Virus genome (UHGV): UHGV-0368429
DNA: 47,797 nucleotides
From: a virus
Direction: 5' to 3' (one strand)
Shown: piece after piece, positions 30,492 through 46,809 of the stretch
How the letters are laid out: each line of letters opens with the position of its first letter
Numbering within the stretch: the first letter of the stretch is position 1
Translations under genes and position numbers: made by a program
The notes under the pieces: generated by a model
Database searches by the model: none
The model's input: the letters and a program-made list of their open reading frames with translations, nothing else
What the model was told of the DNA's origin: nothing

Positions 30492-30700
30492 GCTGCACCA
30501 CCTTCGATCGGCTTTATACTGCTCAGAATCAAACGGCGTGATGTCAGCGGTGCGCCGCTTCGGCGGCCATCTTCTTTCCGGTAAGTTTCAGTGCGACCAA
30601 CACACCAGGTCGTTGGAGTCTCGCGCAACTGCACGGTTTTCTCGCCATCTTTGGTGATGATGGTTCCGGTATGGGTTTTTATTTTCTGGTTTATTGCCAT
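30488..30700 (-). CDS. Hypothetical early protein
   Basis: 70-aa ORF packed between neighbouring genes. Confidence 0.4.
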   Translation of the reverse strand: MAINQKIKTHTGTIITKDGEKTVQLRETPTTWCVGRTETYRKEDGRRSGAPLTSRRLILSSIKPIEGGAA

Positions 30701-33168: not shown

Positions 33169-33540
33169 TCACTGTGCCGCTTTAAGCTTTCCGTCAACGC
33201 CGCCGTTGATCCCGAACAGCTGCCCCTGATCTTCCTGCAGTATGGTCAGCTTGCCGCCTTTGTTAACCCACATTGGTGTTTCGGTGGTGTCTTCTTCGGA
33301 GGCTTTACCGCGCGGGGTTGGGGTGACGTAGTTCAGCTTGTGCTTGATCTTGACGCGCTTCTCTTCGACGGAGTTACCCATACGCTCAATATCAAAGGTG
33401 AGGACTACTTTGCCTTTGGTACCGTTGTTCAGAACGCCAAGCGCGGTAGTGTTTAAAGCTGCCGCGATCTTGTTCATGAACACGCCGGCATCCAGTTCGC
33501 CCAGGAAATCGGGCACTACGGTCATGCGGTCACTACTCAT
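33169..33540 (-). CDS. Hypothetical early protein
   Basis: 123-aa ORF; ATG overlaps the stop of a small upstream ORF (ATGA). Confidence 0.5.
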   Translation of the reverse strand: MSSDRMTVVPDFLGELDAGVFMNKIAAALNTTALGVLNNGTKGKVVLTFDIERMGNSVEEKRVKIKHKLNYVTPTPRGKASEEDTTETPMWVNKGGKLTILQEDQGQLFGINGGVDGKLKAAQ

Positions 33541-33749
33541 GGTTTAACCCTCTCTGAGGCGGCTGCCACCGCCAGTGGAACTTCTCCATACACAACAGAA
33601 AAGGGCACCTGCGCTTCGGCTATGGTTAGGAGGTCCATTTCCATAGCGCCCGGGTGGATTGGGGAATGAGCCCGTCGCCCGGTGATGCCCTTGTCTCTTG
33701 TGTAAAAAAGGTGCCCACCGATGTGATGGGCAAAGACTACACACAGCAA
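33537..33749 (-). CDS. Small ORF coupled to the downstream gene (start uncertain)
   Basis: Frame ends with TGA overlapping the next ATG; listed product begins at a TTG; a 35-aa ATG-initiated version (MEMDLLTIAEAQ...) is possible. Confidence 0.25.
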   Translation of the reverse strand: MLCVVFAHHIGGHLFYTRDKGITGRRAHSPIHPGAMEMDLLTIAEAQVPFSVVYGEVPLAVAAASERVKP

Positions 33750-34079
33750 TGATTTTGTTGTGGCGGTGGTGCCTCCACCTGCCGGGCCGGCCAGAACCGG
33801 CGACGCTACACCTCAAGAAACGTATTCATTTCAAAAGTTGAAATAAAAACTTGTTGGCCTCGTCACGTGCGCAGAGCCGCATTACCACAACTGGAAGCGC
33901 ACTACTTCGGTAACAAACCTGCCCCCGCAGTGAAAGAGAGAAGGAGTGCGCTTTCACGTTGTGCCCTTAAAAAGCTGGCTGTCACCCTCAAGGGGAAAGT
34001 GAGCAGCCAGAACAGGGATCACGTCTTATTGCTTTGGCCTGCTTTTAACCACATCAGGCGCGGTGGTTTGGTGTCGACA

Positions 34080-34168
34080 GAAAAAAATCTAACTTAACTT
34101 AGTTTATTGGTCAAGTGAAAACATCAAACTAAACTTAGCTTGATGCTTAGAGGAAGAGCGGGAAGGGA
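34080..34168. promoter_or_regulatory. oL/pL region: leftward early promoter with operator repeats
   Basis: On the minus strand TTGACC-17-TAGATT; repeated CTTAG/CTAAG half-sites; directly downstream of the cI stop. Confidence 0.55.
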
Positions 34169-34795: not shown

Positions 34796-34894
34796 GAAAG
34801 CACCAAATTTAAAAAAGACTAAGTAATCTTAGTTTTTATTGACCAAAGTTAGATTGGTTATTAATATCTAACCAAACTTAGCTAAGGAGGCTTC
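34796..34894. promoter_or_regulatory. oR region: pR (and presumably pRM) with palindromic operators
   Basis: TTGACC (34839..34844)-17-TAATAT (34862..34867) reading toward cro; palindromes ACTAAGTAATCTTAGT (34818..34833), ACCAA..TTGGT (34842..34858), CTTAGCTAAG (34877..34886); AGGAGG SD before cro. Confidence 0.65.
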
Positions 34895-35110
34895 ATGACA
34901 ACCGACGAGATTGAACAACATTTCGGCAGCACTGAGAAAGTTGCCGAATTTTTTGGCATCACCAGTGAGGCCGTTTACCAGTGGCGTAATCGCCCCGGAC
35001 GCTTAATCCCTAAAGGACGAGCTGCTGAAGCTGCGTATCGAACTGCTGGTGAACTGGAATTCAACCCAGAACGTTATGGCAAGAATACATCGCCTAACGA
35101 TCAGAAATAA
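34895..35110 (+). CDS. cro: Cro-like HTH regulator
   Basis: 71 aa with HTH (…EKVAEFFGITSEAVYQWRNR…); first gene rightward from oR. Confidence 0.75.
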   Translation: MTTDEIEQHFGSTEKVAEFFGITSEAVYQWRNRPGRLIPKGRAAEAAYRTAGELEFNPERYGKNTSPNDQK

Positions 35111-41477: not shown

Positions 41478-41498
41478 TTGTATGGAGCGCTGAGCATA

Positions 41499-42191
41499 AT
41501 GAATTTACAAGAACTGGAATATACGCGGATTGAACTGCGCCGTGCGCTGGCGGATTTATCAGGATCGACAAAAGGGCAGCTGCAGGCGTTCAGTGAGCAT
41601 CCACCAGCAGATAAGAATAAATACCCCCGGCACCATCCTGAAATCGTCATGGAGGGTGGGGAAGGTTGTGGATCGAAGGTTGTAAAAACTCTGGCCACTC
41701 CGCTTTATGTTCTTGAGACAAGGAGCCGTCGCCGACCTTTACCGCCTATTAAGGATGCGGAGTTCGCTTGTTCAGCATGGCGTCGTTCGGTCAATGGTCT
41801 GGGGGAGCATTTGCAGGCATGGGTGCGGTACTGCTATGGGCATGACCTTGCTTTCCGGTACCAGAGGTTAATGTGCCAGCACGTATGGGAAGAGTTCCAG
41901 CGTCAGCATAGCGGCAAAAAAATCCAGGACCGTGTCACTAAAAAACTGGTTGGGCTTGTCTGGCTGGCGGCGCAAGAAGTTGCTGCCTCGCGTAATAACG
42001 ATACCTATCAGGAGTATGCTGGTGCAGCTCTGGCGCGCATGGTCAGCGTTGAGCGTTCCACCTGGCTTAGAGTGTATTCAGGCCACTGGGCGGCTTTCAA
42101 AGCGTCGTTTGCTGAAATGGACAGCCAGGCACTAAGCGAAATTTTGTCACGGTACGAAGGGTACCAAGAACTGAAAGTGGCGGAAATGTGA
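41499..42191 (+). CDS. Q: Late-gene antiterminator Q (tentative family assignment)
   Basis: About 230 aa, last gene before a promoter-terminator pair and the lysis region (lambda Q position); ATG 41499 with GGAG upstream. Confidence 0.6.
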   Translation: MNLQELEYTRIELRRALADLSGSTKGQLQAFSEHPPADKNKYPRHHPEIVMEGGEGCGSKVVKTLATPLYVLETRSRRRPLPPIKDAEFACSAWRRSVNGLGEHLQAWVRYCYGHDLAFRYQRLMCQHVWEEFQRQHSGKKIQDRVTKKLVGLVWLAAQEVAASRNNDTYQEYAGAALARMVSVERSTWLRVYSGHWAAFKASFAEMDSQALSEILSRYEGYQELKVAEM

Positions 42192-42221
42192 GATAACTTT
42201 CACTAACTCCCTCAATTGGGC

Positions 42222-42250
42222 TTGCAAAATGCAACAAAATGAGCCATATT
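42222..42250 (+). promoter_or_regulatory. Candidate late promoter pR'
   Basis: TTGCAA (42222..42227)-17-CATATT (42245..42250), immediately downstream of Q. Confidence 0.45.
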
Positions 42251-42288
42251 TGAAGCTAATTTGATATTTTGTCATAATTATATCTTAC

Positions 42289-42310
42289 CTCGCCTCGGCG
42301 GGGTTTTTTT
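42289..42310 (+). terminator. Candidate tR' terminator (target of Q antitermination)
   Basis: CCTCGC-CTCG-GCGGGG hairpin (6-bp stem with one G-U pair) followed by seven T, about 40 nt after the candidate -10. Confidence 0.6.
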
Positions 42311-42389
42311 ATGCCTTTTGTATCTAAAGCTTGATGCAAAAATGAACCAGAGTTATCTGTGTGTCACACGATAAAAAAGGGGAAAAGGC

Positions 42390-42581
42390 ATGCAAAATCA
42401 ACCTTATATGACAGAAGAAGCAAAGGCGGTTTTTAACGAACTCAGCGCTTCACCAGCGACAGCTGGGGAAATTGCACAGAATACGCACCTAAGCCGAGAG
42501 AAATGCCAGCTCATCCTGACGCAGCTGGTTATGGCGGGGTTATCAGATTACCAGTTTGGATGTTACAAACGCCTCCACTGA
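42390..42581 (+). CDS. Hypothetical small late protein
   Basis: 63-aa ORF with purine-rich SD-like sequence upstream. Confidence 0.45.
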   Translation: MQNQPYMTEEAKAVFNELSASPATAGEIAQNTHLSREKCQLILTQLVMAGLSDYQFGCYKRLH

Positions 42582-42731
42582 AGGGGGCATTCTGCTGTGG
42601 AAATGGGCGGCTGGTGGGTGTTGTAGCACCCAACCAGCCATTAGCTCATGCTTTCAGGTCACAAGCTAACCAAGGCCCACTGCTTTAGCGCAAAAGCATA
42701 GTGAGCCTATCAGAGTTACGCTTACGGATCT

Positions 42732-43784: not shown

Positions 43785-43786
43785 AA

Positions 43787-43812
43787 GCTTGGGTCGCTAT
43801 CGCGGCCCTTTT
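43787..43812 (+). terminator. Terminator-like hairpin after the third methyltransferase
   Basis: GGGTCGC-TAT-CGCGGCCC followed by TTTTT. Confidence 0.4.
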
Positions 43813-43854
43813 TATTACCTCAACTGGACACCCGCAACGTAGCGAGGTGAGAGC

Positions 43855-45274: not shown

Positions 45275-46063
45275 ATGGAAGAACGTCATCACAGCTATAT
45301 CCTTAAAACTATTGAAGAAATAGGAAGGGGTGGGTTCGGTTACGTTGAAAAAATTGAACTTTTCAATGTTAACGGTCACAAATGCGGTGACTACGCCAAA
45401 AAGATTTTGGCGCAGGATCATGGGCTTAGCAAAGAGGACTTCAAAAGAAGATTCAAACGGGAAGTGGATTATCAGGCTAGGTGTACGCACTCGAATATAG
45501 CGCCTATATATCTACACAATCTTCAGGTTGATAGTCCTTGGTTTGTTATGGATCTCGCTGAAAGTGATTTAAGTACAGATTTAGCCTCAGGCACGCTCGA
45601 TAATGCAAGCAAAATGCATATTGCAGAAATGATCCTTTCAGGGGTACGTTTCATGCATACAGAGAAAACTAATGATCCAGGACGTAAGCCAGTATATTTA
45701 CACCGTGATTTAAAGCCATCTAATATTCTTCGTTTTAAAGATGGAGTTTACAAAATTTCCGATTTTGGTTTAGTAAAAAATGCAGGAAAAGAAAGACCAG
45801 AATCTGAGCTTTTAACAAGAGTCGCTACAGCCATGGGAACGCTCAAATACATGGCTCCTGAGATAACAACAGCTGGGCATTACTCAGAGCAAACTGACAT
45901 TTTTGCTCTCGGAGTAGTTATTGATGATATGGGGTTTGATAACGTTAATGGTATTAGACAGTTAATCGATAAATGCACCGCCTGGAGAGCTGCAAGCCGA
46001 TACAAATCGGTTGATGATATGATGCAGGAACTGGCTGATATAAAAATAAGGAATGGGCTATGA
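45275..46063 (+). CDS. Hanks-type Ser/Thr protein kinase (AT-rich moron)
   Basis: 262 aa with GRGGFGYV (P-loop), YAKK (Lys), HRDLKPSN (catalytic loop), SDFG, APE. Confidence 0.85.
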   Translation: MEERHHSYILKTIEEIGRGGFGYVEKIELFNVNGHKCGDYAKKILAQDHGLSKEDFKRRFKREVDYQARCTHSNIAPIYLHNLQVDSPWFVMDLAESDLSTDLASGTLDNASKMHIAEMILSGVRFMHTEKTNDPGRKPVYLHRDLKPSNILRFKDGVYKISDFGLVKNAGKERPESELLTRVATAMGTLKYMAPEITTAGHYSEQTDIFALGVVIDDMGFDNVNGIRQLIDKCTAWRAASRYKSVDDMMQELADIKIRNGL

Positions 46064-46809
46064 TTACCCTACTTTCAAGTGGTCTTTTCTCTTACGCTAA
46101 AAGTTCTTCGCGTACTAATCAGGATTCTATTCTTGCTCCACAGTGCATCGATAATGGCTATTTGATTGCTGTCGCTGATGGCGTTGGCTCGTACTTGGGC
46201 GCAGAACACGCTTCACAAACAGCAATTAAATATTTAGCGAACCTAATCAATGCTTCTTCTATCCAAGATCTTGATAGCCTCTTCGCCACAATAAAAGAAA
46301 AGATTTCTGCGTTATCTGACGCTGATGAATCCTATTTAGAAGCTGCAACGACGTTGACGTTTGCATATGTAAACAATCAAGGTTTGTACATTGGTCATGT
46401 TGGTGATTGTCGTTTGTATATTAAAAAAGATAATAAACTCAAACAACTAACGAAAGATCATACCCAACATCAAAAACTGTTGGATCAGAAGATTTTCAAT
46501 AAAAAAGAACTTAAGGATATGGGGGGGAAAAACACCCTAACAACTGCGATTTCTAAAGTTATCCCATTGGAATTTCAACAAACGTTTATTCCTGCGTCTG
46601 AAGTTTTCGAAGACAACGAAGAGGCCACTCTCTACATTCTTTCAGATGGAGCACACCACTTCTGGGATAAGAGACCAAGATTCTCAATCACTACTTTGAG
46701 CAATCCAAACTGTTTTGCAGCTAGCTTGCATAAACGAATTATTCGTAATGGGCCTATAGATGATTTTTCTTTGGTTGTAGCCAAGTTCAAGCGCAGCAGT
46801 GTTAACTAA
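46060..46809 (+). CDS. PP2C-family Ser/Thr protein phosphatase (AT-rich moron, coupled to the kinase)
   Basis: 249 aa; metal-binding motifs VADGVGS, HVGDCRLY, ILSDGAHH; ATGA overlap with the kinase stop. Confidence 0.75.
   Translation: MITLLSSGLFSYAKSSSRTNQDSILAPQCIDNGYLIAVADGVGSYLGAEHASQTAIKYLANLINASSIQDLDSLFATIKEKISALSDADESYLEAATTLTFAYVNNQGLYIGHVGDCRLYIKKDNKLKQLTKDHTQHQKLLDQKIFNKKELKDMGGKNTLTTAISKVIPLEFQQTFIPASEVFEDNEEATLYILSDGAHHFWDKRPRFSITTLSNPNCFAASLHKRIIRNGPIDDFSLVVAKFKRSSVN

Follow-up and report, generated by a model that had tools for sequence, protein, structure and literature searches.

Introduction

In phage lambda, N occupies the first gene slot behind the early leftward promoter pL. 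HK022, a lambdoid phage without N, has a noncoding structured RNA just after pL, the put element (putL/putR), which consists of two stem-loops, is about 70 nucleotides (nt) long and lets RNA polymerase pass terminators in cis by way of the zinc-binding domain of the beta' subunit. Here we describe the stretch between pL and the first conserved early-left gene of the lambdoid temperate phage UHGV-0368429 (34080 to 33541, minus strand, of the 47,797 nt that were analysed and that we call the window); its closest relatives are the Escherichia phages LLS (96.6% identity over the region), Flotzy and Eeyore. A sequence-only reading of this DNA had seen no convincing N-like open reading frame (ORF) after pL and had offered two ways out, a small unrecognised antiterminator protein or a cis-acting RNA of the HK022 put type, to be checked by RNA structure prediction, comparison to put elements and a boxA/boxB search. 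Like HK022, the phage carries a noncoding structured RNA just after pL and lacks N. We find that this leader is conserved as RNA structure, with compensatory rather than codon-like changes. With belief and doubt in about equal measure, we propose that it is a repressor-controlled promoter-proximal small RNA (sRNA) gene in lambda's N slot, and that its terminator acts as an attenuator of the early-left operon as well.

RprAproc comprises the final 47 nt of the sRNA RprA; it coexists with the full-length RNA and represses narP by itself (PMC9262595). STnc100 and PasD are Hfq-associated sRNAs encoded by prophages of Salmonella and pathogenic E. coli. The STnc100 superfamily has been tied to PasD of enteropathogenic E. 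coli (EPEC), an sRNA that northern blots confirmed, that ranks with the Hfq-bound sRNAs of highest abundance there and that lies near the Q gene (bioRxiv 10.64898/2026.05.13.724894); in Stx2 phages, STnc100 follows stx2 at a distance of 75 nt (PMC12370729). StxS, the short pR' transcript of Stx phages, is reported to arise by early termination at a phage promoter-proximal terminator (PMC7547250), and both for StxS and for IsrK of Gifsy-1 such a terminator yields an sRNA while read-through serves the downstream genes (PMC7547250, PMC4825925). The leader studied here resembles the two in this arrangement, whereas the sequences are unrelated; StxS and IsrK lack a large pseudoknotted core, and read-through is governed by Q for StxS and by the sRNA itself for IsrK.

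The leader contains a conserved pseudoknotted core

Structure prediction gave a leader fold better than that of shuffled controls (z = -2.8). Homology with Flotzy and Eeyore, which have a different repressor and immunity, begins at about 34067, roughly 12 nt past the predicted transcription start, and in the alignment spans the entire leader. At its centre lies the following structure, defined by alignments and by a covariance model (R2):

33891 to 33757, minus strand: pseudoknotted core, 135 nt
33891-33884 with 33764-33757, minus strand: Pa, the closing helix GUUGUGGU/GCCACAAC
33880-33876 with 33870-33865, minus strand: Pb, with a bulged A and the loop UCUGC
33864-33861 with 33805-33802, minus strand: Pc
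between the Pc strands: middle hairpin, variable
33801-33797 with 33785-33781, minus strand: Pd
33859-33855 with 33793-33789, minus strand: pseudoknot between the junction GGCCA and the Pd loop UGGCC
33779-33775 with 33769-33765, minus strand: Pe, with the invariant loop AGGCA (motif GGAGGCACC)

Diverse copies of the core, when aligned, show invariant blocks between variable hairpins, and compensatory changes. In a structure-blind MAFFT alignment of 28 such copies, 95.9% of the cells are paired compared with 25-54% for slid partners, 13 pairs are altered on both sides, and none of 500 shuffles equalled the observed values. For 62 distinct copies, divergent paralogs included, 96.8% of the cells are paired (29-53% when slid), and 22 of the 32 pairs are altered on both sides, with a covariation score of 0.306 versus 0.051 at most, in an alignment that was fitted to the nested helices and so flatters them. 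The pseudoknot, which stands outside that model, covaries as well (GGCCA/UGGCC, AGCCA/UGGCU, GGUAA/UUACC, CAGUUAA/UUAACUG). We conclude that the RNA structure of the core is real.

Model R2, built from the 28-copy alignment, finds a single core copy in the window (33891..33751, 140.6 bits; next matches at most 12 bits), and it also detects divergent paralogs at other loci. These extend Pa to 8-9 base pairs (bp), with covariation of the type AUUGCGGUG/CACCGCAAU and GUGUGGUG/CACCACAC. They contradicted a first model of Pb (GCG/CGC), which we replaced by the 5-bp helix with a bulged A.

The remainder of the leader is structured too:

34047 to 34068, minus strand: first leader hairpin, AACCAC-CGCGCCUGAU-GUGGUU, fold -6.5 kcal/mol
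33966 to 34009, minus strand: long terminator-like hairpin, CUGGCUGCUCACUUUCCCCUUGAGGGUGACAGCCAG then CUUUUUAAGG, five U only, fold -21.5 kcal/mol
33963 to 33886, minus strand: P1 hairpin, with 5' CACAAC (33963-33958), a variable extension and GUUGUG (33891-33886), fold -34.5 kcal/mol
33541 to 33700, minus strand: structured spacer before yfdP, fold -63.2 kcal/mol for 160 nt
33554-33548, minus strand: Shine-Dalgarno sequence of yfdP, GAGAGGG

The first-hairpin block CCACCG(C/A)GCCTGA(T/A)GTGG is found again in many viral contigs. The long hairpin behind it is invariant in LLS, Flotzy and Eeyore, and a simple terminator scan did not call it. The apex of P1 is hypervariable among phages and its stem is retained through compensatory changes (GAAAGCGCACU/AGUGCGCUUCC versus GAGAGCAUUG/CAGUGCUCUC, for example); these statements on P1 are read from the alignment, the P1 stems being bulged and an automatic ungapped search for the 5' partner of GUUGUG having failed. 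We also weighed GAUGUGGU...GCACAAC as another unit within the leader's first ~110 nt and dropped it, because it pairs poorly (5 of 6 pairs) and does not extend. In some lambdoid variants (our loci L010, L025, L030, L031, L082, L084 and others) the P1 apex holds two hairpins that resemble the T arm of tRNA, such as GUCCG-UUCGAUU-CGGAC and UCUGG-UUCGAUU-CCAGA. ARAGORN called no tRNA at these apices, and neither tRNA nor transfer-messenger RNA (tmRNA) in the window.

The spacer contains a long hairpin, AAGGGCAUCACC...GGUGCCCUU, followed by UUUUCUGUU; its apex varies and carries insertions and deletions, its base and flanks are conserved, and it has no conserved reading frame. In this folding model the hairpin with its U-rich UUUUCUGUU may be a further attenuator or a processing site. 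The leader thus has up to three terminator-like hairpins, at 34009-33976 (with CUUUUUAA), at 33732-33712 (with U6) and at about 33692-33598 (with UUUUCUGUU).

The core as a putative subtype of the STnc100 superfamily

No Rfam family (Rfam 15) reaches its gathering threshold anywhere in the window, and the leader shows only a sub-threshold match to RprA. STnc100 (RF02076, gathering threshold 47 bits) does not match the leader even at E up to 10. The connection appears through intermediate paralogs: a type B paralog found in contigs of phage-plasmids like D6 scores 42.4 bits on RF02076 (E 4e-7) and 55-60 bits on model R2, and R2 in turn recovers a bona fide STnc100 (79.4 bits on RF02076) at 26.6 bits (E 4e-6). 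The helices of the core and of STnc100 correspond one to one, and the helix order and the junction motifs GGUGAAU, CCCCCuGuGCGGaGGGG and CCGGGAGGCACCCGG are shared with the Rfam STnc100 consensus. Because the paralogs bridge the two and the helix order and junction motifs agree, the core is, as judged by these comparisons, a divergent subtype of the STnc100 superfamily.

The likeness to STnc100/PasD covers their being phage-borne and the whole succession of a closing helix of 8 bp, the AAU junction, the hairpin with its U-UGCG loop, the middle hairpin, another hairpin with a loop able to pair as a pseudoknot, the AGGCA-loop hairpin (GGAGGCACC), a linker and a terminator. Three things set the window copy apart: an additional P1 hairpin, whose 5' CACAAC is a competing strand; the RprA seed as the 3' linker; and a place in a pL leader, whereas STnc100 and PasD lie near Q, stx or lysis genes. 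When we searched the literature for strings of the core sequence, the only matches were RprA sequences from Hfq papers.

An RprA-like tail and a predicted intrinsic terminator follow the core

Six nt behind Pa, a 47-nt tail begins that is predicted to end in an intrinsic terminator (a G+C-rich hairpin plus U run within 33732..33704); linker and tail together, which begin right after Pa, read AAAAUCAUUGCUGUGUGUAGUCUUUGCCCAUCACAUCGGUGGGCACCUUUUUU (33756..33704).

33750 to 33704, minus strand: RprA-like tail, 47 nt (AU-rich linker, seed, hairpin, U6)
33748-33733, minus strand: seed UGCUGUGUGUAGUCUU
33732-33712, minus strand: terminator hairpin of 8 pairs (5 of them G-C), then CCUUUUUU (terminator scan)
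33709-33704, minus strand: U6 run

The Rfam model of RprA (RF00034) scores the leader at 42.2 bits (E 5e-4), below its gathering threshold of 70. Only the last ~50 model positions align well, and there the two are nearly identical; the RNA is thus not a full-length RprA, and it has the parts of the RprAproc 3' domain, namely seed, terminator hairpin and U6 tail. In blastn searches the leader matches genes annotated as rprA in genomes of E. coli. E. coli RprA has exactly this seed (UGCUGUGUGUAGUCUUUGCCC), and the terminator hairpin has the same shape and is likewise followed by a U run. The window RNA differs from RprA in lacking its 5' 60 nt, the region that pairs with rpoS, csgD and hdeD, and in being driven by pL under a phage repressor, whereas RprA is driven by the Rcs phosphorelay.

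E. coli RprA and phage variants with differing terminator hairpins all keep the string UGCUGUGUGUAG(U)CUU unchanged, and among the phage tails the hairpin differs (GCCCAU...GGGC versus GGCGGUACCAG...CUGGUACCGCC) while the 16-nt seed is constant. A constant seed beside a changing hairpin is the pattern expected of a base-pairing seed. An RprAproc-like module, AAAUUGCUGUGUGUAGUCUUUGCCCAUCGUAAGGUGGGCUUUUUU, is also present in the N4-like Erwinia phage Ea9-2 (Schitoviridae; L165:495-545), immediately 3' of the thymidylate synthase stop codon and without an STnc100-like core. It looks like a mimic of RprA of the 3' untranslated region type in a virulent phage, and since Ea9-2 carries the module alone, the seed and terminator are a module that phages employ separately from the core. 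A literature search for RprA-like phage RNAs found nothing relevant.

No conserved protein gene lies between pL and yfdP

The ORF list holds no ATG-initiated ORF of at least 25 amino acids (aa) on the minus strand of 34080..33541, and no N-like ORF is found as the first pL gene. The frames that start with GTG or TTG are these:

33957 to 33826, minus strand: 43 aa
33991 to 33902, minus strand: 29 aa
33816 to 33544, minus strand: 90 aa
33733 to 33626, minus strand: 35 aa
33749 to 33537, minus strand: 70 aa

None of them matches a PHROG family. The 43-aa frame is disrupted by a 7-nt insertion in Eeyore. Of the two ORFs that the sequence-only reading had taken as the first genes, 33169..33540 is indeed the conserved yfdP-like gene, and 33537..33749 is not conserved: in LLS and Flotzy no more than 5 of its codons are open before yfdP, and other relatives have 1-15 open codons or a peptide that shifts frame. 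The first conserved early-left gene is therefore the yfdP-like gene at 33540..33169, the noncoding stretch reaches 33541, and the earlier statement that no convincing N-like ORF follows pL stands; the annotation of LLS leaves the same gap blank. A boxA search (YGCTCTTTA, at most one mismatch) gave no match in 34080..33541 and 18 in the whole window, where 20.6 are expected by chance. A boxA-like UGCUCUUUCC in the 3' strand of P1 of some variants was rejected, as it covaries to UGCGCUUCC. On these searches, an N/nut system is excluded for the leader.

A probable repressor-controlled pL precedes the leader

Running along the minus strand, the order is cI-like repressor, pL, a gap of about 540 nt, then the yfdP-like gene, yfdQ/DUF2303 and an HD-type nucleotidase-like gene. 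The relevant features are:

34795 to 34169, minus strand: cI-like repressor (phrog_4)
34114 to 34086, minus strand: pL promoter, TTGACC-17-TAGATT (promoter scan)
34089-34102: operator-like palindrome CTAAGTTAAGTTAG (CTAAG-N5-TTAG; pattern search), overlapping the -10 hexamer of pL
33540 to 33169, minus strand: yfdP-like gene, 123 aa, ATG at 33540 (phrog_204, E 1e-41; LLS annotation)
33115 to 32285, minus strand: yfdQ/DUF2303 (Pfam DUF2303)
32149 to 31610, minus strand: HD-domain 5'-nucleotidase-like gene (Pfam YfbR-like)
34895 to 35110, plus strand: cro
41478 to 42191, plus strand: Q antiterminator (PF06323)

The promoter stands where the sequence-only reading had placed it, and operator-like palindromes lie alongside. 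Exact copies of CTAAG-N5-TTAG number three in the 47.8-kb window, and all flank the cI-like gene: the one in pL and two between cI and cro (34819-34832 and 34868-34881). A fourth, with one mismatch, lies beside pL at 34125-34138. Because such palindromes flank the cI-like gene and overlap the -10 hexamer, the layout is as expected, and pL looks credible and repressor-controlled. The other plus-strand genes include a cII-like gene, a replication gene, methylases, an antirepressor, DUF968, holin and lysozyme. The phage has Q and lacks N.

A proposed small-RNA gene that doubles as an attenuator

We propose the following course of events for the sRNA gene with attenuator. When the repressor leaves pL, polymerase would first make about 375 nt of structured RNA, in the order two 5' hairpins, P1, the 135-nt core, a single-stranded seed of the RprAproc type and the U6 terminator. 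Most transcripts would stop at 33712-33704, giving an Hfq-type small RNA, and cleavage in the AU-rich linker (33756-33751) may free a mimic of RprAproc of about 47 nt. In trans, this RNA would act on those host, perhaps also phage, mRNAs that are responsive to RprA's 3' domain. Polymerases that read through would express yfdP, yfdQ and the remaining early-left operon, so that the terminator would double as an attenuator, and neither N/nut nor put would be needed.

Several points weigh against this proposal. We infer the 5' and 3' ends, the termination efficiency, Hfq binding and the targets. The core itself has no STnc100 match, so that its homology rests on the intermediates. Up to three terminator-like hairpins would, in the folding model, make read-through to yfdP poor or costly, a problem that antitermination would solve. 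The nearly isoenergetic competition of P1 and Pa for GUUGUG hints at a switch that the proposal does not contain. The core is also kept without the RprA-like tail, in three lambdoid variants and in the Lastavirus, D6-like and T1-like copies described below. As it persists without the tail, serving as a scaffold for the seed cannot be all that it does; and since it is retained both without the tail and outside operon leaders, with an invariant GGAGGCACC hairpin, the core must, to judge from its distribution, have a function of its own.

The kind of element proposed is already known: a prophage sRNA of the STnc100/PasD family, with promoter-proximal termination as for StxS. Relative to the literature searched and to Rfam 15, the subtype, the pseudoknotted model, the fixed place in the N slot and the fusion to an RprAproc mimic appear to be new. 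The blank that annotators left in a large group of enterobacterial lambdoid prophages would be explained by an RNA gene in the N slot, which offers a concrete candidate for N-independent control of an early operon. The STnc100/PasD family is enlarged by subtypes that the Rfam model misses and receives a structure backed by covariation, so that mutations in the GGAGGCACC loop, in Pa and in the pseudoknot can test its function. The active 3' half of RprA is mimicked in phages that are unrelated to one another, and this mimicry suggests that they tap the host's envelope-stress/RpoS sRNA network upon induction.

The core recurs in several genomic settings

An exact 21-mer from the 3' part of the core (GGCAGGTGGAGGCACCACCGC) is present in at least 120 viral contigs of IMG/VR. 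Among 120 core-holding viral contigs, a cI-like gene lies upstream on the same strand in 76 and yfdP downstream in 79; the upstream cI-like genes are 33-100% identical to the repressor of the window or of Flotzy, which implies several immunity types. Parts of the leader recur in unrelated phages: 33903-33755 in Klebsiella Lastavirus phages and in the P1-like phage D6, and 33903-33858 in many T1-like phages; some 97 E. coli plasmids, about 90 kb in size, share 33805-33757. In the three lambdoid variants that lack the tail, yfdP begins 55 nt after the core. The core of Klebsiella Lastavirus stops 2 nt short of tRNA-Arg(tct), D6-like phage-plasmids hold up to three core paralogs amid tRNA genes, and the T1-like phages Sa179lw and KpV2811 have a divergent copy in a unit that runs from promoter to terminator on the strand opposite to the flanking genes.

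A scan of a genome collection with an 18-base pattern gave 27 matches where about 17 are expected by chance, and 16 were confirmed by the model. Among species-representative genomes, R2-confirmed cores occur in Kluyvera, Buttiauxella, Silvania, Enterobacter, Citrobacter, Klebsiella, Raoultella, Pseudescherichia and Pantoea, and divergent copies in Aeromonadales. Cores of 140 bits, near-identical to that of the window, were also found in Chryseobacterium sp. 18061 (L144) and in a metagenome-assembled genome of Geobacteraceae (L152); most likely these are contaminating or mis-binned contigs of enterobacterial prophages.

Tandem unit types were seen in leaders and tRNA arrays (L011, L007, L019, L033, L043:2870-3290, L126). 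Each unit is closed by a helix like GUUGUGG...CCACAAC, with long hairpins between the units, and some of the noncoding arrays exceed 600 nt. One unit type, GUUGUGGUGAAUGCGCAGGCUGAUGCGC...GCCGGAGAUCAGCACCGGCCACCACAAC, is missed by R2, and another conserved block reads UAUGGCACAUGC...GGAAUGUGCAAGC.

A further noncoding module, itself conserved, lies upstream of the STnc100-like unit in Sa179lw (L131:1207-1347), in KpV2811 (L132), and in L043:2244-2420 and nine other D6-like contigs. It has a short frame, GCA AAC GAU GAU ... UAA UAA, followed by UAAUAACCUG, and the peptides read ANDDVVLMAA*, ANEEMYLAVA* and ANDDLMMVAA*. Frame and following sequence closely resemble the tag ANDENYALAA of E. coli tmRNA and the sequence downstream of it. 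The module scores 26-28 bits on the Rfam model tmRNA_permuted (gathering 47), ARAGORN called no tmRNA in it, and it occurs without annotation in 656 of the 5426 complete genomes of E. coli, for the most part on plasmids. By this resemblance it may be a phage-borne tmRNA-like RNA.

Alternative explanations

The company of tRNA genes suggests another role for the core, which we rate as possible though rather unlikely: a stable trans-acting RNA for translation, tRNA or host defence, possibly a decoy for the ribosome, a tRNA enzyme or a nuclease. In that case, with the same rather low probability, the pL position would do no more than secure expression at the immediate-early stage, with the RprA-like tail as a separate addition. 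The core stands in tRNA arrays and directly adjoins tRNA genes, it is retained without the tail, its GGAGGCACC hairpin with a Shine-Dalgarno-like GGAGG is invariant in all subtypes, and the tmRNA-tag-like module co-occurs with it in T1-like and D6-like phages. This support is contextual, however: no conserved partner protein is found nearby, the tmRNA-like module is absent from the window, and every description of PasD and STnc100 to date is of an Hfq-associated, base-pairing sRNA.

That the core is a cis-acting processive antiterminator, a functional but non-homologous analogue of put whose nascent fold binds the transcribing RNA polymerase, carries it past the leader terminators and later ones and so replaces N, seems to us unlikely. 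The idea gains from the position of the core directly after pL in N-less lambdoid phages of several immunity types, from the clear intrinsic terminator after it, the two terminator-like hairpins that flank it and the early-left genes beyond, and from a conserved pseudoknotted fold that suggests a specific binding partner. Against it, one of the terminator-like hairpins lies upstream of the core, and the relatives STnc100 and PasD are described as trans-acting, Hfq-associated sRNAs. The core also has no similarity to put. A covariance model (R1) of eight putL/putR sequences (HK022, UPF_BP1, phiEt88, CobraSix, HK639), run with filters off on the whole window, gave a best match of 9.5 bits (E 0.66) at 30512-30604, a long way from both pL and pR, and none near either promoter. 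The put consensus (CGAACGGC.CG ... GUCGG ... GGCG.GG ... AGG..GA ... CAAU) is not present, and no second structured copy lies downstream of pR, R2 finding the core of the window once. The window RNA, at about 135-210 nt and with a pseudoknot, also differs from put in size and fold, and it occurs outside operon leaders. Thus the comparison with put elements found no homology: of the earlier suggestion of a cis-acting RNA of the HK022 put type, the leader acting at the RNA level with a conserved fold has held, and the kinship with put has not. By these searches a put-type element is excluded as a family member. The settings outside leaders argue against a put-like role as the main function, because the same RNA occurs in T1-like phages as a stand-alone unit with its own promoter and terminator, antisense to the flanking genes, and in tRNA arrays, with up to three paralogs in D6-like phage-plasmids and a Lastavirus copy that abuts tRNA-Arg.

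A broader version, to our minds improbable, would make the STnc100-superfamily core a class of regulatory RNA in phages that has so far gone unrecognised, one that is directed at the machinery of transcription or translation itself and replaces N in lambdoid phages. It would be a P1/Pa-based switch or an antiterminator in lambdoids and a stand-alone effector in tRNA arrays and T1-like phages, and STnc100 and PasD would have been filed too narrowly as base-pairing sRNAs.

A conformational switch, riboswitch-like or sensing a tRNA or protein, is distinctly unlikely in our estimate, as is its corollary that a ligand or factor stabilising the core decides between termination at 33712 and read-through. 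It would be based on the 5' CACAAC of P1 and the 3' strand of Pa (GCCACAAC), both of which pair with GUUGUGG and are mutually exclusive partners. In type B paralogs both change to CGCAAC where the middle strand is GUUGCG or AUUGCG, and the predicted energies are close (-80.3 kcal/mol for the P1 form and -74.8 kcal/mol for the Pa form, with the 5-bp G+C-rich pseudoknot uncounted). The association with tRNA genes and the T-arm-like inserts in some P1 apices would also fit. On the other hand, no convincing alternative pairing was found that breaks the terminator hairpin, the terminator varies among subgroups whereas the core does not, bona fide STnc100 has no P1 hairpin, the 5' copy in tandem arrays may be mere spacer logic, and the gene context (yfdP, yfdQ, HD phosphatase) offers no ligand candidate.

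Close to refuted, with next to no probability left, is a small non-canonical N-like antiterminator protein from a TTG/GTG frame, the other option of the sequence-only reading: the Arg/His-rich 90-aa candidate (33816..33544) is basic (GRPGRWRHHRHNK) and superficially resembles an arginine-rich motif, but it crosses the core, the RprA-like seed and the terminator, has neither ATG nor Shine-Dalgarno sequence, and belongs to a set of frames that are shifted or broken in close relatives, match no family and change along with base-pairing and not codons.

Other observations in the window

At 42192-42731 (plus strand), Q is separated from an N6/N4 DNA methylase by about 540 nt in which no gene is called, and a short gap at 43785-43854 (plus strand) precedes the holin gene; these two gaps are the expected place of pR' and its leader. 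Neither gave an STnc100-like match with model R2 or any other Rfam match. On the plus strand at 45275-46809, 3' of the lysis genes, a eukaryotic-type Ser/Thr protein kinase (PF00069) is followed by a PP2C phosphatase (PF13672).

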